This document shows, one piece after another, positions 3,244 through 27,560 of a stretch of DNA of 64,000 nt. The notes beneath the pieces are model-generated. The model was not told the origin of the DNA. It made no database searches and worked only from the letters and a program-made list of their open reading frames with translations. The position numbers and the translations under genes are program-made. The stretch comes from Escherichia coli (GTDB lineage: Bacteria > Pseudomonadota > Gammaproteobacteria > Enterobacterales > Enterobacteriaceae): assembly GCF_029227855.1 (NCBI RefSeq), contig NZ_CP074356.1; one strand, 5' to 3'. Numbering within the stretch: the stretch's first letter is position 1; the number at the start of each line of letters is the position of its first letter.

Positions 3244-4563
3244 ATGTTGCCGTTTCTGAAAGCGCCTGCCGATGCGCCATTAATGACTGATAAATATGAA
3301 ATTGATGCCCGCTATCGCTACTGGCGTCGGCATATTCTGCTGACCATCTGGCTGGGTTACGCGCTGTTTTACTTCACGCGGAAAAGTTTTAACGCCGCCG
3401 TACCAGAAATCCTTGCTAACGGCGTGCTCAGCCGTAGCGATATCGGCCTGTTAGCGACCCTGTTTTACATTACCTATGGCGTGTCGAAGTTTGTCTCCGG
3501 CATTGTCAGCGATCGCTCAAATGCCCGTTATTTTATGGGGATAGGGCTTATCGCCACGGGCATTATCAACATTCTGTTTGGCTTCTCGACGTCGCTATGG
3601 GCGTTTGCCGTACTCTGGGTGCTGAACGCCTTTTTCCAGGGCTGGGGTTCACCGGTGTGTGCGCGTCTGTTAACCGCCTGGTATTCTCGTACCGAGCGCG
3701 GCGGTTGGTGGGCATTATGGAACACGGCGCATAACGTCGGCGGCGCACTCATTCCCATTGTGATGGCAGCGGCTGCACTACATTACGGCTGGCGTGCCGG
3801 GATGATGATTGCTGGTTGTATGGCGATCGTCGTGGGAATTTTTCTCTGCTGGCGGCTGCGCGATCGCCCGCAGGCGTTAGGTTTACCGGCGGTCGGTGAA
3901 TGGCGACACGACGCGCTGGAGATAGCTCAACAACAAGAAGGGGCAGGGCTGACGCGTAAAGAGATCCTCACCAAATATGTGTTGCTGAATCCGTATATCT
4001 GGCTGCTTTCGTTTTGCTATGTGCTGGTCTATGTGGTCCGGGCGGCGATCAACGACTGGGGCAATTTGTATATGTCCGAGACGCTGGGCGTCGATCTGGT
4101 CACGGCGAATACGGCAGTGACGATGTTTGAACTGGGTGGATTTATCGGTGCGCTGGTAGCGGGTTGGGGCTCGGACAAATTGTTTAACGACAACCGAGGG
4201 CCGATGAATTTGATTTTCGCCGCCGGAATTTTGCTTTCAGTCGGCTCCCTGTGGCTGATGCCATTTGCCAGCTACGTGATGCAGGCAACCTGCTTCTTCA
4301 CCATTGGTTTTTTTGTCTTTGGCCCACAGATGTTAATCGGTATGGCGGCGGCAGAGTGTTCCCACAAAGAGGCGGCAGGGGCGGCGACGGGGTTTGTCGG
4401 CTTGTTTGCTTATCTGGGGGCGTCGCTTGCTGGTTGGCCGCTGGCGAAAGTACTCGATACCTGGCACTGGAGCGGATTTTTTGTGGTTATCTCTATCGCC
4501 GCCGGGATTTCCGCACTGCTGTTACTGCCCTTTTTGAACGCCCAGACACCGCGCGAAGCGTGA
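3244..4563 (+). CDS. uhpC: Glucose-6-phosphate sensor/transporter-like membrane protein UhpC
   Basis: MFS protein paralogous to UhpT; 439 aa from ATG 3244. Confidence 0.9.
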   Translation: MLPFLKAPADAPLMTDKYEIDARYRYWRRHILLTIWLGYALFYFTRKSFNAAVPEILANGVLSRSDIGLLATLFYITYGVSKFVSGIVSDRSNARYFMGIGLIATGIINILFGFSTSLWAFAVLWVLNAFFQGWGSPVCARLLTAWYSRTERGGWWALWNTAHNVGGALIPIVMAAAALHYGWRAGMMIAGCMAIVVGIFLCWRLRDRPQALGLPAVGEWRHDALEIAQQQEGAGLTRKEILTKYVLLNPYIWLLSFCYVLVYVVRAAINDWGNLYMSETLGVDLVTANTAVTMFELGGFIGALVAGWGSDKLFNDNRGPMNLIFAAGILLSVGSLWLMPFASYVMQATCFFTIGFFVFGPQMLIGMAAAECSHKEAAGAATGFVGLFAYLGASLAGWPLAKVLDTWHWSGFFVVISIAAGISALLLLPFLNAQTPREA

Positions 4564-4597
4564 TGCATCTCACCTTTTCACTTCATATCCGGCAAAA

Positions 4598-4700
4598 CTA
4601 AGAAATTTTCCAGGTTTTGCCTGGACGCTATCTCAGGCCTGATTTGCTGCTGATTTTTACAATGCATGCCTCACGCAGGTATTCATTTCAGGAGTAACCC
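4598..4700 (+). promoter_or_regulatory. uhpT promoter region with inverted repeat TTCCAGG-N5-CCTGGAC (UhpA-responsive region)
   Basis: Inverted repeat seen ~80-100 bp upstream of the uhpT ATG; the uhpT promoter is known to be UhpA- and CAP-dependent. Confidence 0.45.
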
Positions 4701-13729: not shown

Positions 13730-14914
13730 CTAAATATCTTTAATAAACAGCAGGCAAATCATCGCAATACCCAACATCCCTATCGCCAGACAGAACAACG
13801 CATGGTAGCTCCAGATTTCAACCATAATTCCGTCAACAGAGCCGGCGATAATCCAGCCGACGCGTGAAGTATTTGCATATAACGTTGTCGCAGAGCCTAT
13901 TTTTTCAGGCATCAAGTCCTGAAAATAAAGCATGCCGATACCACAGAGAATACCAAGGAAGATGGCATTAAGAATTTGCAATTCCAGCTCAACCGCCGGA
14001 GTCGTCGCCATGAGTACGCTGGCGTAAAAACACATTCCACTCACGATAGCAATGAGCATTAATAGTCGCTTGCCAATACGTTTCATGTAATAGCCTGCGA
14101 TTAACATCATCGGAATTTCCAGACCGGCAGCGATACCAATCATTTCTCCAGCCAGTTTATCGGTTAGATGCAGTTCATCAATAATAAATAGCGGCATATT
14201 TATCATGTAGAGATTATTCGCCGCCCACATCATTGAACAGACCACAAAAAGTAGCCGCGTATCCCGCTTCCTGTGGGTGGAGGGTAAAATTTCTACGGGT
14301 TGGGTAACGACAGGAATATTTCTTTGTATTGATGGCAAAAACAACCAGACTATCAGTCCGCAAACAACAAATGCGATGGCTGCGGTGAGATACATCACTT
14401 TAAAACTAAATCCCATTGCCAGTTCATAAGCGAGCGGTGGCCCGATAACCCAGGCAAGCGAGATCTGAGCACGTAAAAATGTACTGAACATGACCGTCTC
14501 ACGGCCTGTTCTGTCGGCGTGTTCACGGGCGAGGGCGAACATTTGCGGGTTTGCGGTGGAAGCAAAACTACTCAGAAGTACGCCCGTTGAGAGGAGAATG
14601 AAGTAGTTGCGATTCCACGCAAAAAGCGTGCAGGCCAGCACTCCAAATAAGCAACATAGCAGAATCAGTAATTTACGGTCGCCTTGTTTATCGGAGTGCC
14701 TTGCCAGAAATTGACTGACCAGAATTCCCATAATAGCGCTACCGGTGAAGAAAAAACCTACCATTATAGGACGGGCTTTCAGTTCATCTGCGAGGAATAT
14801 ACTTAGGGTAGGAGTCTGAAGAGCGCCCGCAATACCCGTCAGAAAGGCGACAAGTAAAAATGCCGCGGCAGTGAGATCAAGTATTTTTGATGGAGTGGTA
14901 GCCGTTTTTTGCAT
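13730..14914 (-). CDS. setC: Sugar efflux transporter SetC (MFS)
   Basis: 394-aa MFS ORF recognised as SetC/YicK. Confidence 0.88.
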   Translation of the reverse strand: MQKTATTPSKILDLTAAAFLLVAFLTGIAGALQTPTLSIFLADELKARPIMVGFFFTGSAIMGILVSQFLARHSDKQGDRKLLILLCCLFGVLACTLFAWNRNYFILLSTGVLLSSFASTANPQMFALAREHADRTGRETVMFSTFLRAQISLAWVIGPPLAYELAMGFSFKVMYLTAAIAFVVCGLIVWLFLPSIQRNIPVVTQPVEILPSTHRKRDTRLLFVVCSMMWAANNLYMINMPLFIIDELHLTDKLAGEMIGIAAGLEIPMMLIAGYYMKRIGKRLLMLIAIVSGMCFYASVLMATTPAVELELQILNAIFLGILCGIGMLYFQDLMPEKIGSATTLYANTSRVGWIIAGSVDGIMVEIWSYHALFCLAIGMLGIAMICLLFIKDI

Positions 14915-15550
14915 TCTTCTGAATCACCGGGCGAAAAAATATAACTGAGTTACAAATAAGTACCAGTCGAATGAGTATTGTATTAAGAATTTTTGAGTAT
15001 CGCTGATACAACCAGAAAGCAATGCTAGCGCAATATTATAGGGCCAGCAATTGAGATTATTAGTAAAAGCATGTTAAGAATTAATTACCGAATTTATATA
15101 TTAATTATAGTAAGGCAATGAGCTATTTTTGATAGTAAAAATAAAACAAGTTGATTTGATATATTAAATGAACAAATTAATCTTGATGGCAGTCTGATTA
15201 TTGGTGAAGTTTATAGTCAGTTTTTTTCGCCAGCGGTTAAAGAAATAGAATAGTCGTATAAAAAAGGGTGTTCTGGGGCGAGTAAAACAACATCTTCACC
15301 TTAATGGCGATACAGTTGGCTGAGAGTCAGCAGGGGGGCAAATCACCTGCAAATAAACACGGCGCATACTGGCGTGAATATCGCGGATGCGTTCGAGGAC
15401 AGAAGAACCGACAGGCGGATTCTTCAGCCGCTCATCGTCCATCACAAAACCTTAGACCAGGTATTCCTGAAGCCGATTGAATATTGAGCAGTAGAAAATA
15501 TCTGGATTGACAGTATTACAAGGGGTTGGAGAACGTCAGGAGAGGCATTT

Positions 15551-15571
15551 TGGCGGAAGATCACAGGAGTC
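15551..15571 (+). repeat. attL: 21-bp direct repeat of the selC 3' end
   Basis: Exact copy of 27174..27194. Confidence 0.8.
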
Positions 15572-15715
15572 AAAATTGACATATAACAATTTGATTTAAA
15601 TCGTTTATATTTTTCTATTCTAATTCATTTATACACATCCTTATACATATAATATCTATCGATTAATTTTTACACGCATCTTCACGCACGTTAACTCAGG
15701 AAAAAAATTTTTTTT

Positions 15716-16012
15716 TCGGAAGAACTGTTCACACTGTTCACCTTTCTGTTTTCTCCTTTTATTTCAGTTGGATAGGTGGTGAATAATGGGTGAAGGGTGA
15801 ACATTCGATTCTTCACCTCCGGCATTCTGCCGGTGTGACTCATACCGGTGATTAATCCCCCGTGCTGAAATCACACCGGAAGAAAAAAGTTTTTTTTGAT
15901 TTGATTGTTCACACTGTTCACCTTTCATTTTTCTCTTTTAATTTCAGTGTGATAACGGGTGAATATACGGTGAAGGGTGAACAGTGGATTGTTCACCTTC
16001 GGGGAATTCAGG
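15716..16012. repeat. crr-like region: two ~110-bp direct repeats with TGTTCACC/GGTGAACA octamer iterons
   Basis: Block gttcacactgttcacctttc...ggtgaagggtgaaca occurs twice (about 15722 and 15903), immediately downstream of the alpha gene; P4 crr has two 120-bp repeats with alpha-binding type I iterons. Confidence 0.7.
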
Positions 16013-16047
16013 GATAAAAAAAGACCGGCAGATGCCGGTCACGTGGG

Positions 16048-18381
16048 TCAGGTTGTTGCAGGGTCGTCACATTTTGGCAGCCAGTCGCCGTAGCTTTCCT
16101 CTTTCAGCGTCAGGTTGGTCTGTATCCCCTGTTTGGTATGGCGCTTCTCGTAATTCAGTCCGTATTCCTTCAGCATCACCGGCAGCCCCAGCCCGAACAT
16201 TTTCAGACTGAGTACATTCCGGTAGCCGTTTGCCTCCATGTAGGCCAGATAGGCGTGATAGAGGTATTTACGGTAATTGCGCGGGATGATACTGGCGTTC
16301 CCCATATACATGCCGCTGGTCTGCGGCAGGGTTTCCAGATAGCCGATAAAATCAAACGTCGGGTCGGCATCCCGTTTGATGTTCAGCGCCTCGTCTGAGT
16401 TCTGCTGGGACTGAAGCAGTGACCGGGCGAGCATCGGGTCGCTGAACTTCTGCATCAGGTGACGCACGATGACCGCCAGCTCGCGGGTGATTTTGTCCTT
16501 AAGTTGCGGGTCGCGCTCCTGCGGGGCTATCTGTTCCGGGAAGTGAATAATCACCCGCCGGCGTGACACGCCGCCGCTGCGGTCGGTGAAGCGCATCGGG
16601 TTATTGTTCACGGCCAGAATCACCGCCGGGATATGCGTGGAGTACGCATCCCGGTATTTCGGGTCAACGGACACTGCATCGCCGCCGGTGATGGCCTTGA
16701 GTCCGGCTCCGTCGCCGCTCCATTTTTCCTGGTCCGGCAGGCGTATCAGTGAGAAGCCAGTTAACGCGGCACGTTCACGCGGGGATTCCAGCGTCTCAAT
16801 GGTGGCCGACGTGGCGTTATCCTCCCCGGCCAGCAGGGTGGCTATTTCGGCCATGATACTTTTGCCGCTGCCGCCGGGACCGGTCACCTCCAGAAAGAGC
16901 TGCCAGTCGTAGCGGTTTGCCAGCACCATAAACAGTGCGGCCAGAATCACGTCGCGTTTTTCCGCACGGCCACCGGCGGCACGGTCAAGCCAGCGCCAGA
17001 ACGCGGGGGCGTGGGTCTCCAGCGTTTCCCCTTCCACCGGCGGGGTGAAATCCACATCGCACAGGGTGCGCATCCAGTGTGACGGACTGTGCGGGTGGAA
17101 CGTGCCGTTCTGCGTGTCGAGCACGCCGTTACGAAAGCCAATCAGGCGGCGGGAGGGGGCTTCCTGCTGCGGAATAATCAGCTTCAGGGTGTCCACCACG
17201 GAGGCCACCTTCCCGGAGGAGAACGGCGCGCGCAGACGCTGAAACAGCCCGGCCACATCCCGGGCAAAGTCCTGTGGCGGCAGCACCTTCCAGACACCAT
17301 TTTCATAGCGGGACAGAAGCTGGCCGTTGGCATCGACCGCGAGCGCCTCGCCGTAATGCTCATAGATACGCATGGCCTTTTCGCTGGTACTCATGGCGGA
17401 AAACTCCGCTTCGCTCATGGTGTCGAACGGGCTTTCAGCCGGTGGCCGGATGGCATCATAAATGGCCTTACGGGTGGCTTCCCCGCCGTACTGCGTGAAG
17501 GCATCATTCCAGTCACCGAAGACCGGCGGCAGGGCAACAACACCTTCACACGCATCTGCGGCTGCGGCGGCTTTTTTCTGGCCGTCACCACTGAGGTCAC
17601 GGTCAGCGGCAAGGACAATCTGACAGGCGGGGTGCTTCTGCCGGGCAAGGCTGGCCAGAGAAAGGAGGTTCACGGAAGAAAGCGCCACCATCACCGTTTC
17701 ACCGGTCAGGTGATGTACGGTAAGTGCGGTCGCGTATCCCTCCGCTATCCACAGACGTTTTCCGGCCTGATTCTGTCCTTCAAGGGTGTGACAGGTGCCC
17801 CTGACCTGTCCGCCTTTCAGGGTGCGCTTACGGCCGTCAGCACTGATTAACTGAAGGTTAACCAGTTCGCCGCTGTCGTCATACAGTGGCACCACAAGGT
17901 CACCGGCGCGCCAGCTCACGCCACCGGCTCTGTGTGTGCCGGTCAGCATCCGGCATTCCCGGCCGGGAAAGCCCTTGCGGGTCAGGTAGGCGTTACCGGT
18001 TCCGGTACGGGTTTTCGCCATCAGGGTTTGTGCCAGTGCGGCGGCGTTCTTCCGGGCAGCGTCTGTTTCAGCACCGGCGGCGGCCGTCACTGCCGGGTCA
18101 GCCGGGGGCAGGCTGCCGGTCACGGCAGCCACCTTTGCGGCCGCGTCGGACGGGGAAACACCAAACACCTTTTCAACCAGTTTCAGGCCGTCACCGGCAC
18201 CACACTGATTGCAGTACCAGGTGCCGCGCCCCTCCCTGTCATCAAAACGGAAGCGGTCACTCCCGCCACAGACCGGACAGGGCTGATGACGGTTCTTCAG
18301 CACCTGAATCCCCAGCGCCGGGAGAATACGCGGCCAGTGGCCGAGCGCATGGCTGACGGTGGCGGTTACGTTCATTTTCAT
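16048..18381 (-). CDS. P4 alpha-like DNA primase/helicase
   Basis: 777-aa ORF; N-terminal zinc-finger primase motif CPVCGGSDRFRFDD...YCNQCG; Walker A GPGGSGKS in the C-terminal helicase part; same length as P4 alpha. Confidence 0.9.
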   Translation of the reverse strand: MKMNVTATVSHALGHWPRILPALGIQVLKNRHQPCPVCGGSDRFRFDDREGRGTWYCNQCGAGDGLKLVEKVFGVSPSDAAAKVAAVTGSLPPADPAVTAAAGAETDAARKNAAALAQTLMAKTRTGTGNAYLTRKGFPGRECRMLTGTHRAGGVSWRAGDLVVPLYDDSGELVNLQLISADGRKRTLKGGQVRGTCHTLEGQNQAGKRLWIAEGYATALTVHHLTGETVMVALSSVNLLSLASLARQKHPACQIVLAADRDLSGDGQKKAAAAADACEGVVALPPVFGDWNDAFTQYGGEATRKAIYDAIRPPAESPFDTMSEAEFSAMSTSEKAMRIYEHYGEALAVDANGQLLSRYENGVWKVLPPQDFARDVAGLFQRLRAPFSSGKVASVVDTLKLIIPQQEAPSRRLIGFRNGVLDTQNGTFHPHSPSHWMRTLCDVDFTPPVEGETLETHAPAFWRWLDRAAGGRAEKRDVILAALFMVLANRYDWQLFLEVTGPGGSGKSIMAEIATLLAGEDNATSATIETLESPRERAALTGFSLIRLPDQEKWSGDGAGLKAITGGDAVSVDPKYRDAYSTHIPAVILAVNNNPMRFTDRSGGVSRRRVIIHFPEQIAPQERDPQLKDKITRELAVIVRHLMQKFSDPMLARSLLQSQQNSDEALNIKRDADPTFDFIGYLETLPQTSGMYMGNASIIPRNYRKYLYHAYLAYMEANGYRNVLSLKMFGLGLPVMLKEYGLNYEKRHTKQGIQTNLTLKEESYGDWLPKCDDPATT

Positions 18382-18395
18382 GGTGTTGTTCTCCT

Positions 18396-18716
18396 TCAGT
18401 GCAGTACCGGCGCTTTTATGTGACGGGCACAGAGTTCATCCATCACAACCAGCCCGAGAAAGGACAGCGACGGCGCGGCCTTCAGGGGGCCGGATTCCAT
18501 TAAATCTTCCAGCAGGGCACAGGCTATCTGACGCCCTTTTTCCTCACCGTGCTGGCGCAGATAAAAGCCTTCCAGCTCAGCGGCGATGGCCGCCTCCAGT
18601 GATTCAAGGGTGAGATGCGGGTAGCGGTGCTGACGTTCGCACACGGTCAGCCAGGCACAGGCGACAGCGCGACGGTAAAGGGCAGCGCGTAAGACGGGCG
18701 GTAAGGGTGTTTTCAT
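18396..18716 (-). CDS. Hypothetical protein (P4-like left operon, 106 aa)
   Basis: ORF immediately upstream of and co-directional with alpha; no recognised motif. Confidence 0.5.
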
Positions 18717-18851
18717 TTGCTTTCCTCCCTGTGACAGATGACTGCATTCCGTGCCGGTTGCATTAACTGATAAGGCATATCTGCGTCTCCTGAAGACGTG
18801 CGTATCCCTGCGCGAATACGCACATTTAATTTTTCGGGTGTCGTTTTTTAA

Positions 18852-19307
18852 TTACAGATAATTGCGGTAACTGTTATCCGGGGTGATTTCCGGGTCAGGC
18901 TCCGTGCGGGGAATTTCCCGCCATTCCCGCGCCACCTGTGCCGCCCGGCTGACCGGAACAGGGTCCTGCGGGTAAATATCCAGATATTTCTCCCGCCATT
19001 TCTGTAATTCCGGGTCTCCGGCCATTTCTTTCAGTACCGCATGCCGGTTTACGGGGCTGCGTCTGAACAGGTCAGGACGGTCACAGGTAAATTCCCGCAG
19101 AAAACGCCCCAGCGGGATGTCTGTGGTGCGCCCGTCAGCGAGGATACGCACAAGGATACTGAATTTACGGCGGTACGGGTTCCAGACAATGTCCGGGCAG
19201 CGGTACGGCATTTCCCACGGAATACCGTCTTCCAGAATGCCGACCACGGCCACATCGGGAAAACCGGCAGAACGGTAAATCTCACCGGGCTGGGGAAAAT
19301 CAAACAT
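18852..19307 (-). CDS. Hypothetical protein (151 aa; same length as P4 orf151)
   Basis: Co-directional ORF in the left operon; protein-like composition. Confidence 0.55.
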   Translation of the reverse strand: MFDFPQPGEIYRSAGFPDVAVVGILEDGIPWEMPYRCPDIVWNPYRRKFSILVRILADGRTTDIPLGRFLREFTCDRPDLFRRSPVNRHAVLKEMAGDPELQKWREKYLDIYPQDPVPVSRAAQVAREWREIPRTEPDPEITPDNSYRNYL

Positions 19308-19872
19308 GCGTCCTGTCTCCCCGGTCTTTCTGCTGGGCGAGAAAATCGCGGCACAGGCCTTTGGCTTTCAGCTCATTCAGCACAAAATCAATATCTTCAT
19401 TCAGGTAACTGAAAATATGCGGAATGTAGAGCTGATGCAGGCCGGAGAGTTCACGGTGAATCAAATCACCCCCAACAAACTGGGATACGGCGCTGGCGCG
19501 GTTGAGCTTATGGTAAGCCTCAATGCTGAGGTGTTCACGGGCGTCATGACGTGCTGAGACGGTCTGAGGGGCTTTTTTATTACGCACGGGACACCTCCAC
19601 CACCGGCAGACGGGCAGCAAGGGAGAGCACATAGTCACGGACAAGGGAACGGCGGGCACTGCGTTCATCACCGGCCACGGTGCGAAGCATACAGATACGG
19701 GGATGACGGTCTGCGCGACGGACAGCCGCAAACACAAAGACAAATTCAGGGTGTGAGGGGGTAAGGGTTGTAGCCATGATGGCAGCCTCCTGTGAATAGC
19801 AAATAACGCTATCGCCGGAGTTCTCACGCTCGATGGCGATAGCCCAGACGGGGGTGAGAATACCGGCTTCAC
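19300..19872 (-). CDS. Hypothetical protein, start uncertain
   Basis: C-terminal ~85 aa look protein-like; the N-terminal part is P/S/L/R-rich and overlaps another frame; putative GTG start. Confidence 0.3.
19580..19777 (-). CDS. Hypothetical small protein (65 aa; C-terminal part of the 214-aa ORF)
   Basis: Internal ATG ([12 protein letters not shown]...) gives a compact ORF ending at the stop at 19580; the upstream part of the 214-aa ORF overlaps vis and is probably not coding. Confidence 0.25.
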
Positions 19873-20175
19873 AGGATACCGGCCAGCCCGGAGGCTGCCC
19901 CGCCTGAGCTACCATTGACTCTGCGGCATAATGAGCGGACGCGGGCAGGATGCACGGAATGCCATCTGCACGACTGACCACACACCACACCATAATCTGG
20001 CGCTCTGTGGCATTGATTGCGACACAAAAAAAGACGCGTGGCGCGTCATATGTCGCCTGTGAATTGCTCGGGTTCTCACGCCCGGCTGCCGATTTTGCGG
20101 CAGCGGAAAAACTATATCCGCAAATGCCGGAAAAAGGCAAGCCAGAAAAAGGGAGTTTTTGCAGAGCGGGCATCA

Positions 20176-20442
20176 TCATGCGTCGTACCCCCGTTTGCGT
20201 CCGGCAATGCGTCCGGCCATCCATGCGGTGACTTCAGAGTGCAGCCAGGCCACATTTTTACCGCCAAGACTCACCTGCGGCGGAAATTCCCCCTTACGGA
20301 TGAGTTCATAGATGGTCGAGCGTGACAGGCCGCACAGGTGCATCACTTCCGGCAGACGTAAAAAACGCTCCTGCGTGATGTCCGGCAGCGGCATCAGTGG
20401 CGTCACTGGGGCGGGAGACGGGGAAGAAAAAACAGATTGCAT
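20176..20442 (-). CDS. AlpA/Vis-family phage transcriptional regulator (88 aa)
   Basis: AlpA-type HTH signature FLRLPEV...[15 protein letters not shown]; same length as P4 Vis (orf88). Confidence 0.78.
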
Positions 20443-20545
20443 CGGGCTACCTCGTTAATGTCCATACAGCACCGGATAAGTCCGTCCGGCTTCGGGTAGC
20501 GCTTTATTTTGTGAATATTTTCGGCAGACGCAACAGGGGGGGATT

Positions 20546-20563
20546 TGTTCCGGCAGTCTTACA
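20546..20563. promoter_or_regulatory. TGT-N12-ACA site (Ogr/Delta-type activator box), candidate leftward late promoter
   Basis: TGTtccggcagtcttACA ~110 bp upstream of the vis start; P2/P4 late promoters carry TGT-N12-ACA centred near -55. Confidence 0.4.
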
Positions 20564-20719
20564 ATGGCTGTGTATTTTTTGTACATCAGCGCCAGATAGC
20601 TTTAAAACGCTCTGGAAGGAGCTGGAAAAAATTATAGTGAAATACAAATTGTTTTTTCTTATTTATTTCAGTGAATTAATAAAAATAAAAAGTAATGAAC
20701 AGCACAAAAAGCCCATTAA

Positions 20720-20830
20720 CGGGTGAACAGTGGTGAACAGACGGTGAACAGTCATTACTGCGATTGTTCACCCTTTAACTTACTGTATTACTTATCTTTT
20801 TTCTTATGGTGAACAGAGGTGAACAGTAAA
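20720..20830. repeat. ori-like cluster of GGTGAACAG iterons
   Basis: Five direct copies and one inverted copy of GGTGAACA(G) within ~110 bp, ~4.8 kb from the crr-like repeats, as in P4. Confidence 0.65.
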
Positions 20831-20904
20831 ATATAAAAAAACAAACAGTAAGCCGGTTTTTCCTGCGACCTTTTCCTGGCTTGCCGGTCTGAGGATGAGT
20901 CTCC

Positions 20905-20922
20905 TGTGTCAGGGCTGGCACA
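20905..20922. promoter_or_regulatory. TGT-N12-ACA site, candidate Psid late promoter activator box
   Basis: TGTgtcagggctggcACA centred ~80 bp upstream of the sid ATG. Confidence 0.45.
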
Positions 20923-20994
20923 TCTGCAATGCGTCGTGTTGTTGTCCGGTGTACGTCACAATTTTCTTAACCTGAAGTGACGAGGAGCCGGAAA

Positions 20995-21729
20995 ATGTCT
21001 GACAACACCATCCCTGAATATCTGCAACCCGCGCTGGCACAACTGGAAAAGGCCAGAGCCGCCCATCTTGAGAACGCCCGCCTGATGGATGAGACCGTCA
21101 CGGCCATTGAACGGGCAGAGCAGGAAAAAAATGCGCTGGCGCAGGCCGACGGAAACGACGCTGACGACTGGCGCACGGCCTTTCGTGCAGCCGGTGGTGT
21201 CCTGAGCGACGAGCTGAAACAGCGCCACATTGAGCGCGTGGCACGCCGGGAGCTGGTACAGGAATATGACAATCTGGCCGTGGTGCTGAATTTTGAACGT
21301 GAACGCCTGAAAGGGGCGTGTGACAGCACGGCCACCGCCTACCGGAAGGCACATCATCACCTGCTGAGTCTGTATGCAGAGCATGAGCTGGAACACGCCC
21401 TGAATGAAACCTGTGAGGCGCTTGTCCGGGCAATGCATCTGAGCATTCTGGTACAGGAAAATCCGCTCGCCAACACCACCGGCCATCAGGGCTACGTCGC
21501 ACCGGAAAAGGCTGTCATGCAGCAGGTGAAATCATCGCTGGAACAGAAAATAAAACAGATGCAAATCAGCCTCACCGGCGAGCCGGTTCTCCGGCTGACC
21601 GGACTGTCAGCGGCAACACTCCCGCACATGAATTATGAGGTGGCAGGCACACCGGCACAGCGCAAGGTGTGGCAGGACAAAATAGACCAGCAGGAAGCAG
21701 AGCTTAAGGCCAGAGGGCTGCTGTCATGA
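20995..21729 (+). CDS. sid: P4 Sid-like capsid size determination (external scaffold) protein
   Basis: 244 aa from MSDNTIPEY; coiled-coil-rich; first gene of the sid-delta-psu arrangement. Confidence 0.78.
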   Translation: MSDNTIPEYLQPALAQLEKARAAHLENARLMDETVTAIERAEQEKNALAQADGNDADDWRTAFRAAGGVLSDELKQRHIERVARRELVQEYDNLAVVLNFERERLKGACDSTATAYRKAHHHLLSLYAEHELEHALNETCEALVRAMHLSILVQENPLANTTGHQGYVAPEKAVMQQVKSSLEQKIKQMQISLTGEPVLRLTGLSAATLPHMNYEVAGTPAQRKVWQDKIDQQEAELKARGLLS

Positions 21730-22226
21730 TTTACTGCCCGTCGTGTGGACATGTTGCTCACACCCGTCGCGCACATTTCATGGACGATGGCACCAAGATA
21801 ATGATTGCACAGTGCCGGAATATTTATTGCTCTGCGACATTTGAAGCGAGTGAAAGCTTTTTCTCTGACTGTAAAGATTCAGGAATGGAATACATTTCAG
21901 GCAAACAGAGATACCGCGATTCACTGACGTCGGCCTCCGGCAGTATGAAACGCCCGAAAAGAATGCTTGTTACCGGATATTGTTGTCGGAGATGTAAAGG
22001 CCTTGCACTGTCAAGAACATCGCGGCGTCTGTCTCAGGAAGTCACCGAGCGTTTTTATGTGTGCACGGATTCGGGCTGTGGTCTGGTGTTTAAAACGCTT
22101 CAGACCATCAACCGCTTCATTGTCCGCCCGGTCACACCGGACGAACTGGCAGAACGCCTGCATGAAAAACAGGAACTGCCGCCAGTACGGTTAAAAACAC
22201 AATCATATTCGCTGCGTCTGGAATGA
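21726..22226 (+). CDS. delta: P4 Delta-like late-gene activator (tandem Ogr-type zinc fingers)
   Basis: 166 aa; two Ogr-like Cys motifs (CPSCGH...CRNIYC and CCRRCKG...CTDSGC); start overlaps sid stop. Confidence 0.88.
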   Translation: MIYCPSCGHVAHTRRAHFMDDGTKIMIAQCRNIYCSATFEASESFFSDCKDSGMEYISGKQRYRDSLTSASGSMKRPKRMLVTGYCCRRCKGLALSRTSRRLSQEVTERFYVCTDSGCGLVFKTLQTINRFIVRPVTPDELAERLHEKQELPPVRLKTQSYSLRLE

Positions 22227-22299
22227 GGGCTGCCGGTTAACCCCGGCCGTCGCCGCACACCGTATTTTTATTCTTCAGCATGATGAGAAAGAGATAACG

Positions 22300-22872
22300 A
22301 TGGAAAGCACAGCCTTACAGCAGGCCTTTGACACCTGTCAGAATAACAAAGCAGCATGGCTGCAACGCAAAAATGAGCTGGCAGCGGCCGAACAGGAATA
22401 CCTGCGGCTTCTGTCAGGAGAAGGCAGAAACGTCAGTCGCCTGGACGAATTACGCAATATTATCGAAGTCAGAAAATGGCAGGTGAATCAGGCCGCCGGT
22501 CGTTATATTCGTTCGCATGAAGCCGTTCAGCACATCAGCATCCGCGACCGGCTGAATGATTTTATGCAGCAGCACGGCACAGTACTGGCGGCCGCACTGG
22601 CACCGGAGTTGATGGGCTACAGTGAACTGACGGACATTGCCCGAAACTGTGCCATACAGCGTGCCACAGATGCCCTGCGTGAAGCCCTTCTGTCCTGGCT
22701 TGCGAAGGGGGAAAAAATTAATTATTCCGCACAGGATAGCGACATTTTAACGACCATCGGATTCAGGCCTGACGCGGCTTCGGTGGATGACAGCCGTGAA
22801 AAATTCACCCCTGCGCAGAACATGATTTTTTCGCGTAAAAGTGCGCAACTGGCATCACATCAGTCTGTGTAA
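22300..22872 (+). CDS. psu: P4 Psu-like polarity suppression / capsid decoration protein
   Basis: 190-aa ORF following delta; same length and position as P4 Psu. Confidence 0.78.
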   Translation: MESTALQQAFDTCQNNKAAWLQRKNELAAAEQEYLRLLSGEGRNVSRLDELRNIIEVRKWQVNQAAGRYIRSHEAVQHISIRDRLNDFMQQHGTVLAAALAPELMGYSELTDIARNCAIQRATDALREALLSWLAKGEKINYSAQDSDILTTIGFRPDAASVDDSREKFTPAQNMIFSRKSAQLASHQSV

Positions 22873-23036
22873 AACTCCCCGAAAATCCGTCCGATTTTAC
22901 TGAAAAAAGCCATGCATCGATAAGGTGCATGGCTTTGCATGCGTTTCCCTGCCTCATTTTCTGCAAACCGCGCCATTCCCGGCGCGGTCTGAGCGTGTCT
23001 GTGCAACTGCATTAAAACCGCCCTGCAAAGCGGGCG

Positions 23037-23076: not shown

Positions 23077-23739
23077 TTACTCAATTGAAAAATGTAACAT
23101 TCCTCTCTCTCTCGGTGTAATGGTGTTGGGATGAACTAACCGTTCCATTTCAAAACCAAAATCATGATAAGCAGTATTATAAAAAGAGCTTAAAATAAAT
23201 TTCACAAACGTTACCGGACATAATGGTGACGACAATGGTATCCGGCAATTTTTAAACTGACCTAGGGTTAGGTGTGCTGCTGGATGAATAACATCATTAG
23301 CGTCATCAGGGGCATAATCCACTCGTATCGGAACGGGTAAAATTGATTTTTGGACAATGTCAGCATAAAAGTTGCTTTCGTCTAAATATAACTCAGGGTC
23401 ATTCTGGAATGATTCGTAATTAGGCGCGGGGAAATAACATAGTCTTTCTTTTACAAGTTTCATTCGACGATCAAACTGAAATAAAAGATGGAGTAACCCA
23501 CCATCTAATAATTTGATATTATATTGCCTTTTTTCGTCCAAGAAGTTATAGATATCAACATACTCAATATTTCTTAATGCAATTGAAGTATCAGCGAATC
23601 CGCTATAGCTGACATAATAATATTCTTTATCCCGTGTTATTACAGGATAGTTTTGTGCGTCACTGATACCCACTGATATCAGATGAGATGTGATTTTTCT
23701 AATTGCTGCGCAAATGCTACTTGAGTTCATCTCATTCAC
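23077..23739 (-). CDS. Hypothetical protein, second gene of the satellite cargo operon (candidate defense partner/effector)
   Basis: 220-aa ORF; start overlaps or lies 1 nt after the stop of the upstream helicase-like gene; AT-rich; no recognisable catalytic motif or TM segment. Confidence 0.7.
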   Translation of the reverse strand: MNEMNSSSICAAIRKITSHLISVGISDAQNYPVITRDKEYYYVSYSGFADTSIALRNIEYVDIYNFLDEKRQYNIKLLDGGLLHLLFQFDRRMKLVKERLCYFPAPNYESFQNDPELYLDESNFYADIVQKSILPVPIRVDYAPDDANDVIHPAAHLTLGQFKNCRIPLSSPLCPVTFVKFILSSFYNTAYHDFGFEMERLVHPNTITPRERGMLHFSIE

Positions 23740-25828
23740 CCTTCAGTTGCTTAATTAAAGCAAGGCGTAATTCTTCTGGTATATCTTCAACTCTAACTTG
23801 TCCATCCAATAGAACCATGAGATTATGGGCGTTCAATTTAGCTTGGTGTACTCTTTTTCTCTCTTGAGAAGTCATATCCCTGTTCACCAGTCGCATTTTT
23901 TTACGCTCTGCTTCTGTTGGGTATGTAAATTCCAGTTTAAATCCTCTTTGTTTCACCTCATTGTATTCGTTAATCAGGCCATCAAAGGAAGAACCCACAC
24001 CACATACACGAAGCCATGCTTTAGTTCTTGTCATTGCAGTAAAAAGGATATTTCTACGCTTTGCCAGTTCATAATCCACGTTGCAATAATGAGCATCCAT
24101 GATGTATACCATAGCTGCTTCGTTTCCCTTTGCTCTGAATATGGATGTAAATGTTACACTATTGTCTGAGAAAAACTCATCAGGAGAGCTTGTAATTCCA
24201 GCTATAGATGTATTAATTCCGTTTTGGAATAAAAGGTCACGCAGATAACCTACTTCATTTCTCATACGTATTGTATCTGGGTGAATTACAACAATGTCGC
24301 TAGGTAATATCTCTTCCTCATGAATATTTTTAAATATTTCCTGCGCAATCCAATTAGATTGAGAATGCTTGTCTTCAAATTTAACAAACTGGATCATCTC
24401 ATCAATTGAGTTATGTGCACTCAATAGGGATGGGCTAGATTTCGTTGTCCTTGATAATATAACCTCCTTTCCCTCAACTAATTCACCATCTATTTTTTCA
24501 TAACCAATCTCTGTCCATAATCCTTCAAAATCAAACATCTGAATTATTGGTTTATGATAAATACCAAACCCTAAAGCATGAGCCGTGGTTAAGATTGGGC
24601 CTGGATTTCGATAACAAATGTCTAAAGTTATATCTTGTTCTTCACTGGTGAAACTAACAATTGGTTTTCCATGCTCGTCTACTCCCCAAATTTGTTCAGG
24701 AGAAGGCATGGATGAATCCCCAAGATTTTGTAATTCATCATAAGCGTAAACTAATCGTTTCTTTTCCCCTAGCAAAGAATAACATATGCGGAGAAACTCA
24801 ATTGAAAAATCTTGAGCCTCATCAATAAGGATGAAATCATATAATTTCTTATCTTCTTTTTTATTATCGAGGAAGTTCTTACAGGCAGCCTGAAAAGGTG
24901 TTTCATTAAATTCTGCAAGACGACGTGCGCCGTTATAATCGTAATAAGGTATATTATGTGCCACACATGCGTTGTAATATAAACCTTCTGTTTTAGAGCC
25001 GCCCCAGGCATGAATAATGTCTACGTTATCCCAATCAATTCCATTATCATCTGCGAATGCTGAGACTAAATGTTTTAGTTGCTCTTTGAGAGAGCGACTA
25101 TTGAAAGTAACTGCTATTTTCCAGTGAGGATTTTGTGAGTGTATATGTGCAATTTTTCGAGCGAGAACAATAGTCTTACCTGAGCCAGCAAGCCCACGAA
25201 TCCTTTGGACATTATCAATATTGACCAAGACGGCAGTCGTTTGACTAGAATCAAGAGTGGCAAGTGAATTCTCCAATTTTTTTAGTACGCTACCCTTTGA
25301 GTCAATCTGTCTGACATAGCTTCTTTTTCTCTTGGGCTTCAATTTTGAAAGTGATTGAACATGGGATAGTAAAGTTTCAAGAAGGGAACCATCATCCCAG
25401 GTAATGTCATTGAGAATAGATAATATTTCATCAACATTGGAACTAATGCTTAAACCACTGTCACAATCAAAATCATCAATATTTATACAGTTTGGTGCGA
25501 AAACAATACTGTTCACAGGTACGTTTAATATTCTGTTTTTAGTCAGTGCTTTTACTTCAGAAAGTTTTGCGACGAATTTCATGTGCATTTCGTCAATGAT
25601 ATCAATATCATCTTGGGTTAACTCTCTTTCCTCATTGAAATGGAAAATGACAACACCATGCTTTGATGAGCAAATTAGACCATCAAGAGTAACATTGTTT
25701 TCGCTTAGAAAAATAACAGGAAAACCGCGATAATAATATCCAGTTATATCATTTATCTTTCTTATTGAATTTTCTAGAATATCAGAAACAGTATGATTCT
25801 GAGGTTTCATTCCCAATATTTCAATCAT
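23732..25828 (-). CDS. SF1 (UvrD-like) helicase-family ATPase with ~200-aa N-terminal domain of unknown function; candidate defense protein
   Basis: 698 aa; Walker A GLAGSGKT (res ~212-219), motif II LIDEAQDF (res ~334-341), C-terminal FRAKGNEAAMVYI and FTAMTRTKAWL resembling UvrD-like helicase C-terminal motifs; GGAG Shine-Dalgarno 8 nt before the ATG; start overlaps the int stop. Confidence 0.85.
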   Translation of the reverse strand: MIEILGMKPQNHTVSDILENSIRKINDITGYYYRGFPVIFLSENNVTLDGLICSSKHGVVIFHFNEERELTQDDIDIIDEMHMKFVAKLSEVKALTKNRILNVPVNSIVFAPNCINIDDFDCDSGLSISSNVDEILSILNDITWDDGSLLETLLSHVQSLSKLKPKRKRSYVRQIDSKGSVLKKLENSLATLDSSQTTAVLVNIDNVQRIRGLAGSGKTIVLARKIAHIHSQNPHWKIAVTFNSRSLKEQLKHLVSAFADDNGIDWDNVDIIHAWGGSKTEGLYYNACVAHNIPYYDYNGARRLAEFNETPFQAACKNFLDNKKEDKKLYDFILIDEAQDFSIEFLRICYSLLGEKKRLVYAYDELQNLGDSSMPSPEQIWGVDEHGKPIVSFTSEEQDITLDICYRNPGPILTTAHALGFGIYHKPIIQMFDFEGLWTEIGYEKIDGELVEGKEVILSRTTKSSPSLLSAHNSIDEMIQFVKFEDKHSQSNWIAQEIFKNIHEEEILPSDIVVIHPDTIRMRNEVGYLRDLLFQNGINTSIAGITSSPDEFFSDNSVTFTSIFRAKGNEAAMVYIMDAHYCNVDYELAKRRNILFTAMTRTKAWLRVCGVGSSFDGLINEYNEVKQRGFKLEFTYPTEAERKKMRLVNRDMTSQERKRVHQAKLNAHNLMVLLDGQVRVEDIPEELRLALIKQLKGE

Positions 25829-27011
25829 TTTGAACTCCGGTAGATAAATTCATCAAAAAATCCGAGTATTTTTGCATCATATATTTTCTTTTATCAAGAT
25901 ACAAAGCATGATTATATGTGCCTCGGATAGTATTCTTATCAACATGTGCGAGCTGAATCTCAATCCATGCGCTCTCAAATCCCATTTCATGAAGAATTGT
26001 CGATAGTGTATGCCTAAAACCATGACCAGTAGTTCTTCCCTTATAACCTAATGATTCAATAACTTGGTTTACACTTTCTTTGCTTATCGGTTTTCTACGA
26101 TCATTTCTGCCAATAAAAACATAGGGATAGTCCGATGTTATCGGTTGTAGTTGTTTAAACAGTTCAATTACCTGAGATGATAAAGGTACTATATGTGGCC
26201 GACGCATTTTCATCCGTTCAGCAGGTATTTCCCAGATACCTTTTATCAAATCAATTTCACTCCAAGTTGCAAAACGCATTTCCTGCGTCCTGACTCCTGT
26301 CATCATTAGGATCTTGGTTGCGTTTTTGGTAATAATACTTCCAGTATATGACTCTAGATCTCTAACAAAATGAGGTAGCTCTTCCGCGGATAAAAACGGA
26401 TGATGCCTTTGCTTGGGAATAGCCAAAGCGATTGCTAAATCAGGCGCCGGATTGTATTCAGCACGGCCAGTGATGATCGCGTAGCGAAACACTTCTCCAC
26501 ATCGTTGGCGAACTTTTCTGGTTTTCTCCAACGCTCCACGTTTTTCGATGCGCTTAAGTACTTCAAGCAGTTCTAATGGCTTAATTTCAGATATTGGGCG
26601 TTTACCAATGAAAGGAAAAACGTCCTGTTCGAATGTTTTAATAATTTCCTCCCGATAAGCGATAGTCCAGCGATCTGCTTTTGCTGCATGCCATTCTCTG
26701 CTAACTGACTCAAAAGAATTTTCAGTTGATAATTTTTGAGCAAGTTTCTGAGCCTTCCGTTCTTCTACTGGGTCTATGCCGTTTGCTACCTGCTTACGTG
26801 CAGTATCACGTTTCTCTCGTGCTTCTGCGAGGCTAACAAGTTCGTAACTACCAAATGACATTAGCCGTGCTTTACCGGCGAAACGAAAGCGGAAGCGCCA
26901 GCCCTTTGAACCGTCTGGCTTGATGAGTAGTGACAAACCGTGCCCATCATTCATTGTATATGGTTTGTCTTGTGGTTTTGCGCGTTTGATTTGTATATCG
27001 GTTAGAGCCAT
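25821..27011 (-). CDS. int: P4-type tyrosine integrase
   Basis: 396 aa; catalytic HGFRHT...(R)...Y motifs in the C-terminus; N-terminal P4-integrase-like region; lies next to selC. Confidence 0.93.
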   Translation of the reverse strand: MALTDIQIKRAKPQDKPYTMNDGHGLSLLIKPDGSKGWRFRFRFAGKARLMSFGSYELVSLAEAREKRDTARKQVANGIDPVEERKAQKLAQKLSTENSFESVSREWHAAKADRWTIAYREEIIKTFEQDVFPFIGKRPISEIKPLELLEVLKRIEKRGALEKTRKVRQRCGEVFRYAIITGRAEYNPAPDLAIALAIPKQRHHPFLSAEELPHFVRDLESYTGSIITKNATKILMMTGVRTQEMRFATWSEIDLIKGIWEIPAERMKMRRPHIVPLSSQVIELFKQLQPITSDYPYVFIGRNDRRKPISKESVNQVIESLGYKGRTTGHGFRHTLSTILHEMGFESAWIEIQLAHVDKNTIRGTYNHALYLDKRKYMMQKYSDFLMNLSTGVQND

Positions 27012-27173
27012 GTGTATAACTGAAAACTGCGTATGAAGATTCTATACACATTACTATACATATTTTTCGCGGATTCAGGGAGATGATCTCGGACTATTAC
27101 GGACAAGATGATTATTTATGATATTGAATATAAAGGATTTTATGGAGTATCTCGGAACTGGCTGGATGAAGTT

Positions 27174-27268
27174 TGGCGGAAGATCACAGGAGTCGAACCT
27201 GCCCGGGACCGCTGGCGGCCCCAACTGGATTTGAAGTCCAGCCGCCTCACCGGAGACGACGATCTTCC
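27174..27268 (-). tRNA. selC: tRNA-Sec (selenocysteine tRNA, UCA anticodon)
   Basis: 95-nt match to the selC sequence as I recall it, on the minus strand, including long variable arm and CCA end. Confidence 0.93.
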
Positions 27269-27560
27269 GCGCCTCGATTGCTACATGGAGGCGGGGCGCA
27301 TTATAGCTACTTCCTTGAGTTTCTACATCCCCCAGATCAGTTTTTTCCGCCTAATACACGCAGCGTATTATCACGAAAGCATTATAGTTCATATAAAACC
27401 CATATTTTACAATGATATATGAGCGGAATTAACGCTACCACGATCACATAAAACAAGAATCATAAATTAATAACCAGATATCGGAATATTCGCTCTCACA
27501 GGGATGGTTTACAAAATGCGTTATCGGTCTCAGCACCCCTATAGCATCAAGGAAAAGCAG

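Follow-up and report, generated by a model that had tools for sequence, protein, structure and literature searches.

The window, that is, the whole stretch of 64,000 nucleotides of Escherichia coli DNA that was analyzed, carries at the selC locus an inserted element flanked by a 26-nt att repeat, both copies of which are intact and lie 11,623 nt apart. The repeat block considered here begins 128 nt inside the left end of this insertion. The block and its main companions are listed below, with the strand given where one applies.

15549–15574: left att copy, the duplicated selC 3' end, in direct repeat with 27172–27197 (from the empty-site comparison)
15703–16002: the whole crr, a gap-free match to P4 X51522 4291–4590, annotated 'crr'; 288/300 identical
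16013–16040, minus strand: rho-independent terminator of alpha, a stem-loop at 16023–16040 and then a T run; P4 'talpha', 4604–4628
16048–18381, minus strand: alpha gene for a primase-helicase with a C-terminal origin-binding domain, the expected iteron binder; 771/776 against P4 alpha
18396–18716, minus strand: cnr (ORF106), copy-number regulator; 106/106 against P4 ORF106
20722–20825: ori type I iteron cluster with six exact TGTTCACC copies, the partner of crr; P4 9310–9413, offset +11412
25821–27011, minus strand: tyrosine integrase, not the P4 one; Pfam Arm-DNA-bind_3, Phage_int_M and Phage_integrase
27172–27197: right att copy, overlapping the 3' end of tRNA-Sec (27174–27268, minus strand)

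The limits of the insertion were obtained from an empty selC locus that matches the window at 14800–15574 and 27172–27500 with a 26-nt overlap, which gives an insertion of about 11.6 kb, the genome size of P4; this empty-site control is an E. coli-like stretch in two unverified 'Campylobacter phage' records, one at MG065691.1 104449–105526 (L083) and the other in MG065686.1. The selC stretch of these records is 99.9–100% identical to the flanks in the window and is probably assembly contamination. To the left of the att copy, RefSeq annotates 'rhuM: RhuM family protein' in other E. coli genomes at what corresponds to about 15250–15460 of the window, an interval in which no ORF of at least 60 aa is present here.

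When positions 15400–16400 were read with a repeat finder, a single strong direct-repeat family was obtained, consisting of two 120-nt copies at 15703–15822 and 15883–16002, which are 79% identical to each other and start 180 nt apart, leaving a spacer of 60 nt. An earlier note on this DNA had described two direct repeats of ~110 bp about 180 bp apart, which was essentially right, and had placed them at 15716–16012; the location holds, but the first 13 nt of repeat 1, within an A/T tract, were missed, and the interval runs 10 nt past the end of repeat 2. The word 'tandem', also used there, is a loose term, because Tandem Repeats Finder gives no 180-nt period, its sole report being a 9-nt ACTGTTCAC doublet. 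The block is a pair of repeats and does not form an array. The several octamers per repeat that the note had pointed out are indeed present, as five type I sites in each copy plus a sixth GGTGAAGG site. The parts of the block are as follows.

15701–15716: A7T9 tract at the start of repeat 1; mean conservation of the tract columns 0.84 in 66 units
15703–15822, plus strand: crr 120-nt direct repeat 1, alpha-distal; P4 4291–4410, 'crr 120bp direct repeat'
15726–15733, plus strand: type I iteron variant TGTTCACA, repeat 1 site a; P4 4314–4321, 'ori type 1 repeat'
15735–15742, plus strand: type I iteron TGTTCACC, repeat 1 site b
15778–15785, minus strand: type I iteron variant, repeat 1 site c, GGTGAATA on the plus strand; P4 4366–4373
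15789–15796, minus strand: sixth iteron-like site of repeat 1, GGTGAAGG on the plus strand; columns 87–93, mean conservation 0.90 in 66 units
15796–15803, minus strand: type I iteron, repeat 1 site d, GGTGAACA on the plus strand
15810–15817, plus strand: type I iteron variant TCTTCACC, repeat 1 site e; P4 4398–4405
15823–15882: 60-nt spacer with a 14-nt inverted repeat; 6 of the 12 differences from P4 fall here, and it is unconserved in other tandem-type crr regions
15883–16002, plus strand: crr 120-nt direct repeat 2, alpha-proximal; P4 4471–4590
15883–15897: A6GT8 tract at the start of repeat 2
15906–15913, plus strand: type I iteron variant TGTTCACA, repeat 2 site a; P4 4494–4501
15915–15922, plus strand: type I iteron TGTTCACC, repeat 2 site b
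15958–15965, minus strand: type I iteron variant, repeat 2 site c, GGTGAATA on the plus strand
15969–15976, minus strand: sixth iteron-like site of repeat 2, GGTGAAGG on the plus strand
15976–15983, minus strand: type I iteron, repeat 2 site d, GGTGAACA on the plus strand
15990–15997, plus strand: type I iteron TGTTCACC, repeat 2 site e

The five type I sites of each repeat, counted with up to one mismatch allowed, follow the order + + - - +. The sixth site, GGTGAAGG (reverse complement CCTTCACC), is found in each repeat and is without annotation in the P4 GenBank record; the block holds 12 sites in total, 10 matching the annotated P4 type I iterons and 2 extra conserved ones. The 64-kb window contains 14 exact copies of the octamer TGTTCACC, where 1.72 would be expected, an 8-fold enrichment over shuffled sequences, none of which (0/100) reached this count. 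Five of these copies lie in the block, six in the cluster at 20722–20825, and three are scattered singles. The two repeats differ from each other at 25 positions, one of which is in an iteron (P = 1.6e-4).

The inverted repeat of the spacer (14 nt, 15825–15838 and 15871–15884) has a perfect 9-bp core, CCGGTGTGA / TCACACCGG, and holds 3 of the 6 spacer differences from P4, in which its counterpart has three central mismatches. The spacers of other tandem-type crr regions are G+C-rich, unrelated in sequence and 46–59 nt long, and the 14-nt inverted repeat is absent from them. A functional role for this inverted repeat was considered and dropped, given that it is weaker in P4 and absent from the other tandem-type spacers.

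A sensitive BLAST search of phage records with positions 15600–16100 returned bacteriophage P4 as the sole match, starting at 15703, which equals P4 4291. The annotation of X51522 at 4291–4590 reads 'crr (cis required region for replication)' and includes two features named 'crr 120bp direct repeat' and ten named 'ori type 1 repeat', followed in the record by the alpha terminator and then the alpha gene. The block is collinear with P4 4291–4590 and aligns to it gap-free at 288 of 300 positions (96%), with all ten annotated octamers present and unchanged, so the P4 crr architecture suggested in the earlier note is borne out, as is its description 'downstream of alpha': the block lies 3' of the 777-aa ORF and beyond the terminator stem-loop. 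The 80 iteron nucleotides are free of all 12 substitutions (hypergeometric P = 0.022), six of which lie in the spacer and sharpen its inverted repeat.

Every defining feature of P4 crr that can be tested in sequence was found. The block is placed 3' of alpha and its terminator (16023–16040) and ahead of the att copy at 15549–15574; it has two 120-bp direct repeats with 60 bp between them and five type I octamers in each, in the order given above; and the same replicon carries a six-iteron ori and encodes in cis an alpha protein with a C-terminal iteron-binding domain. The likeness to P4 crr (X51522 / NC_001609, 4291–4590) thus extends to the site after alpha and its terminator, the 120 + 60 + 120 layout, and the number, order and orientation of the ten octamers, while the left-side att/integrase module is unrelated and the element occupies selC, not the att site of P4 itself. 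On sequence grounds, the block is the ortholog of P4 crr, more than a crr-like region. The block represents one allele of a previously described element, carried by a prophage family that is common in E. coli.

The homology to P4 extends well beyond the block, with 15702–23036 being 98.2% identical to P4 4291–11624 over crr, alpha, ORF106, ORF151, epsilon, cI, ori, sid, delta, psu and cos. It begins exactly at the left edge of crr (15702/15703) and ends at 23036; the att-proximal 128 nt to the left of crr and the region to the right of cos are unrelated to P4, the latter side carrying a different tyrosine integrase. Within the homologous part, alpha is an intact ORF of 777 aa, identical to P4 alpha at 771 of 776 residues (99%), with the Pfam domains Zn_Ribbon_Prim, Toprim_3, D5_N, DUF5906 and Pox_D5, and its residues 671–770 match PDB 1ka8, the solved structure of the P4 origin-binding domain (E = 1e-63). 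Cnr (ORF106), whose gene adjoins alpha, is 100% identical to its P4 counterpart (106/106), and sid, delta, psu and cos are 98% identical. At ori, all six iterons are exact (6/6) and lie 4.7 kb from crr; a window-to-P4 offset of +11412 applies to crr and to all six ori octamers, and crr and ori are therefore spaced exactly as in P4. Taken together with the att repeats, the element is regarded as a complete P4-type satellite prophage of 11.6 kb at E. coli selC, with alpha, Cnr, ori and crr intact.

Two other parts of the element were also recorded. The region of the P4 immunity RNA, at 19832–20117 on the minus strand, contains three Rfam matches, namely C4 antisense RNA (19832–19919), isrK (20027–20104) and the c4-a1b1 target (20065–20117). 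At the hotspot between integrase and psu (23080–25828, minus strand), a DUF2290 protein of 220 aa and a UvrD-like helicase of 698 aa replace the P4 genes gop-beta-cII, and these proteins match the PADLOC defence-candidate models PDLC02999 (E = 2e-77) and PDLC03002 (E = 2e-265).

The extent to which the block is shared by relatives was assessed in 80 P4-like loci from other species, fetched with alpha as bait (alpha 56–88% identical), of which 77 had enough sequence 3' of alpha for crr units to be counted by BLAST with the 120-nt units. Crr-like units, always in the same orientation, are located 3' of alpha in 61 of these 77 loci from other Enterobacterales genera, and the conservation in related satellites on which the earlier note had made its reading depend is therefore present. 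The units occur in 39 of 40 loci whose alpha is at least 75% identical, in 5 of 7 at 63–70%, and in 17 of 30 below 62%. The satellites with crr-like units, among loci L002–L081, are those of Citrobacter, Enterobacter, Raoultella, Buttiauxella, Pantoea, Erwinia, Serratia, Rahnella and Rosenbergiella, and their 120-nt unit shares with the present one the A/T tract and the double site TGTTCACACTGTTCACC, a centre rich in T, GGTGA sites in inverted orientation and a TTCACC at its end.

Across 66 distinct units, mean conservation is 0.91 in the annotated iteron columns, 0.84 in the A/T tract, 0.90 in the sixth site and 0.66 in the other columns (iteron versus other columns, Mann-Whitney P = 2e-7), figures that are somewhat biased towards iteron columns and conserved blocks, because the alignment was built from BLAST matches to the reference unit. 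The same pattern can be seen by eye in an alignment of the Enterobacter, Buttiauxella, Pantoea, Erwinia, Rahnella and Rosenbergiella units. Furthermore, nearly all loci keep an ori cluster with the same octamer at a distance of 1.6–2.6 kb upstream of alpha, and the binding specificity thus seems to be conserved throughout the family.

The number and placement of units vary in these satellites. A single unit is present in 38 loci, two in 20 and three in 3; units are adjacent, as here, in 12 loci, the first unit is displaced from alpha in 15, and in 11 the units are 0.2–2.5 kb apart, mostly (at distances of at least 0.6 kb) with variable genes between them. Because one unit is seen more often than two or three, the second repeat is likely to be redundant, and the comparative findings are consistent with units that function on their own, wherever they are placed.

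By BLAST of the available sequence 3' of alpha, no crr-like unit was detected in 16 of the 77 loci, most of which keep the ori iteron cluster; fifteen of these are L037, L040, L043, L045, L051, L055, L056, L060, L061, L062, L064, L071, L073, L078 and L080. In L043, for example, alpha is 79% identical and ori has 6 sites, in L064 the iteron cluster is only 51 nt upstream of alpha, and in L073 an octamer cluster lies 2.3 kb downstream. These 16 loci could reflect divergence, decay or dispensability in some lineages. A scan for octamer clusters (at most one mismatch, at least four sites) was dropped as evidence of absence, as it missed diverged units, most of which were recovered by BLAST with the 120-nt unit.

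In P4, crr is required in cis for initiation at ori, and one repeat is reportedly enough, while Cnr is a copy-number regulator that acts with alpha. The octamer TGTTCACC is common to crr and to the P4 ori (ori1) and is recognised by the same protein domain in both. The ori contains six exact copies at a spacing of about 10–11 nt beside an AT-rich stretch and type 2 repeats, whereas crr consists of two blocks of 5–6 sites, mostly one-mismatch variants, in mixed orientation with 7–11-nt spacing, and has no annotation as a start site. Comparable arrangements, in which initiator sites are repeated kilobases away from an origin and influence it in cis, are those of R6K (gamma ori with oris alpha and beta, and the pi protein) and P1 incA, where the distant iterons act through protein-mediated DNA looping or handcuffing. 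The analogy would be one of mechanism only. The Rep and pi initiators are unrelated to the primase-helicase fusion, and the sequences show no similarity. The ori and crr of P4 were reportedly defined by Flensburg and Calendar in 1987; Ziegelin et al. are said to have found, in 1993 and 1995, that the C-terminal domain of alpha binds the type I iterons of both, Tocchetti et al. reportedly described crr in 1999 as common to both P4 replicons, and the structure 1ka8 is said to have been solved by Yeo et al. in 2002. The 1993 paper is cited in PMC8628076, and crr and ori have been mentioned in print as being carried on a P4 cosmid.

The most likely function of the block is that of a predicted alpha-binding site needed in cis for replication from ori. 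The same function as in P4 is inferred with high confidence, because the site, the protein and the partner origin are nearly identical to those of P4. The overall reading, that of a crr of a P4-family satellite with predicted binding sites for alpha, a cis role at ori and modulation by Cnr, is considered very probably correct, with looping or enhancer action kept as a hypothesis within it. According to the proposed mechanism, the alpha encoded by the element itself would recognise the twelve crr sites through its C-terminal winged-helix domain, and, once the excised 11.6-kb circle replicates, alpha bound at crr would be needed in cis for initiation at ori. The likeliest way in which this could work, purely as a hypothesis, is that alpha at crr contacts alpha at ori through a DNA loop and assists helicase loading or activation in the AT-rich part of ori. 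Cnr would modulate the binding of alpha at both crr and ori and could thereby limit copy number, and in the integrated, repressed state, as found here, crr would be expected to be silent.

A different weighting of the same parts is conceivable, in which crr binds alpha yet serves mainly as a negative locus for copy number or incompatibility, either by titrating alpha or by alpha-Cnr handcuffing with ori. Iterons located at two distant loci and an intact cnr gene next to alpha are compatible with such a role, the architecture recalls plasmid control loci such as P1 incA, and a unit number ranging from 1 to 3 in relatives might suit a dosage-type regulator. However, the wording of the P4 record, 'cis required region for replication', denotes a positive requirement, and at least one unit is kept in 39 of 40 close relatives. 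A mainly negative function is accordingly thought unlikely, with a minor but real chance of being right; negative copy control and the reading of crr as a cis-required site are not mutually exclusive.

The site could also be a dead relic, that is, a crr ortholog in a cryptic prophage that is no longer functional. The element is integrated, its integrase and cargo modules differ from those of P4, and many P4-like elements of E. coli are cryptic, all of which would agree with decay. The state of the replicon speaks the other way, with alpha at its full 777 aa and 99% identity, Cnr at 100%, ori at 6/6 exact iterons, sid, delta, psu and cos at 98%, and both att copies intact at a distance, 11,623 nt, equal to the P4 genome size. 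In addition, the iterons have remained unchanged while the spacer diverged, and loss of function is consequently regarded as improbable.

Crr was found in 1142 of 5426 complete E. coli genomes, in all of which RefSeq labels it either 'none' or as a spurious hypothetical protein, and never as crr. The junction of flank, att and crr, at a coverage of at least 80%, is present in 350 of the 5426 genomes. The nearest crr allele, at 99.3%, belongs to an element beside glaH/lhgO in another E. coli strain. Because the P4 homology starts at the crr edge and the nearest allele sits beside glaH/lhgO, it is suggested that the replication module recombines with different integration modules at or near this edge, and the block is judged to travel with alpha, not with the integrase.

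The same observations weigh on a reading of the octamers as arm-type sites for integrase or excisionase in the attachment region, for which the distance of only 128 nt to the att core and the coincidence of the P4 homology break with the left edge of the repeats might be cited. However, the octamer also forms a cluster 4.7 kb away, at ori, the block is kept with alpha across elements with different integrases and att sites, the annotated attP arm repeats of P4 (3621–4174) are different sequences, and in relatives the units may be 0.7–2.6 kb apart or displaced by cargo. Arm-type sites are thus very improbable, and this assignment was rejected, the block being linked to alpha and not to the integrase and failing to qualify as a member of that class. 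A CRISPR-like array locus or a structured non-coding RNA, for which repeated units with an intervening spacer and a single-strand folding z of about -4 on both strands might be adduced, has a practically negligible chance, with two 120-nt copies only, alpha and host genes as neighbours, the terminator of alpha between alpha and the block, no convincing promoter seen for the block, and no Rfam family in it (C4, isrK and tRNA-Sec being found elsewhere in the element). The opposite orientation of the iterons trivially accounts for the low folding energy. Array, RNA and structured-ssDNA readings were all rejected on the grounds of copy number, the lack of an Rfam match and the explanation of folding by inverted iterons; the earlier note had warned that the block could be mistaken for an array-like repeat.

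For this window, the result carries little weight beyond supporting the view that the selC island is a complete P4-type satellite. RefSeq leaves the crr unannotated, so recognising it guards against its being taken for an array or for a regulatory repeat of unknown nature. A modestly useful by-product lies in the comparative findings that one unit is commonest, that iteron specificity is kept from Escherichia to Rosenbergiella, and that the units bracket variable cargo. These points bear on the need for a second alpha-binding site and on the exchange of defence genes by satellites.

In the relatives whose crr units bracket variable cargo, the order is either alpha-crr-cargo-crr or alpha-cargo-crr(-crr). 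Split units are found in L019, L020, L022, L023, L024, L026, L028, L030, L041 and L079, and displaced units in L003, L004, L067, L006 and L021. The interval between split units has conserved edges of about 40–55 nt, AGGnTATAGGTACAGGCGTTATAGTCTGCTGTGAGCG... and ...TCCGCTTCTGGCACTAAGCGGTCTGAT, around different genes in L019, L020, L022, L023, L024, L028 and L041, with the right edge only in L026 and L030 and neither edge in L079; this conserved-edge slot was seen in a sub-lineage with alpha about 82% identical. One small gene occurs in both arrangements, before the pair or between the units (167 aa in L004, 181 aa in L079).

Among the cargo of the crr slot are a homolog of BovA (Borvo), with a PADLOC match at E = 2e-227, and an AAA_15 ATPase of AriA/OLD-like type (E = 3.5e-55). 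The cargo loci are L019:5283–7412, L021:3523–5307 and L024:5809–7260 on the minus strand and L022:9089–10291, L006:8563–10107 and L030:8810–10129 on the plus strand. Several cargo proteins of 400–515 aa gave no significant Pfam or PADLOC match, the hit in L022 alone being marginal (PD-T7-1, E = 5e-4), and these proteins are candidate unknown defence genes. It might be proposed that crr units are the recombination anchors of this cargo slot, through which cargo would be swapped between satellites, with the 60-nt spacer found here and in P4 as the 'empty' slot; the proposal is doubtful, with a slim chance of being correct. If it were true, crr would define the minor 'primase-att' hotspot of defence genes that has been published for P4-like elements.
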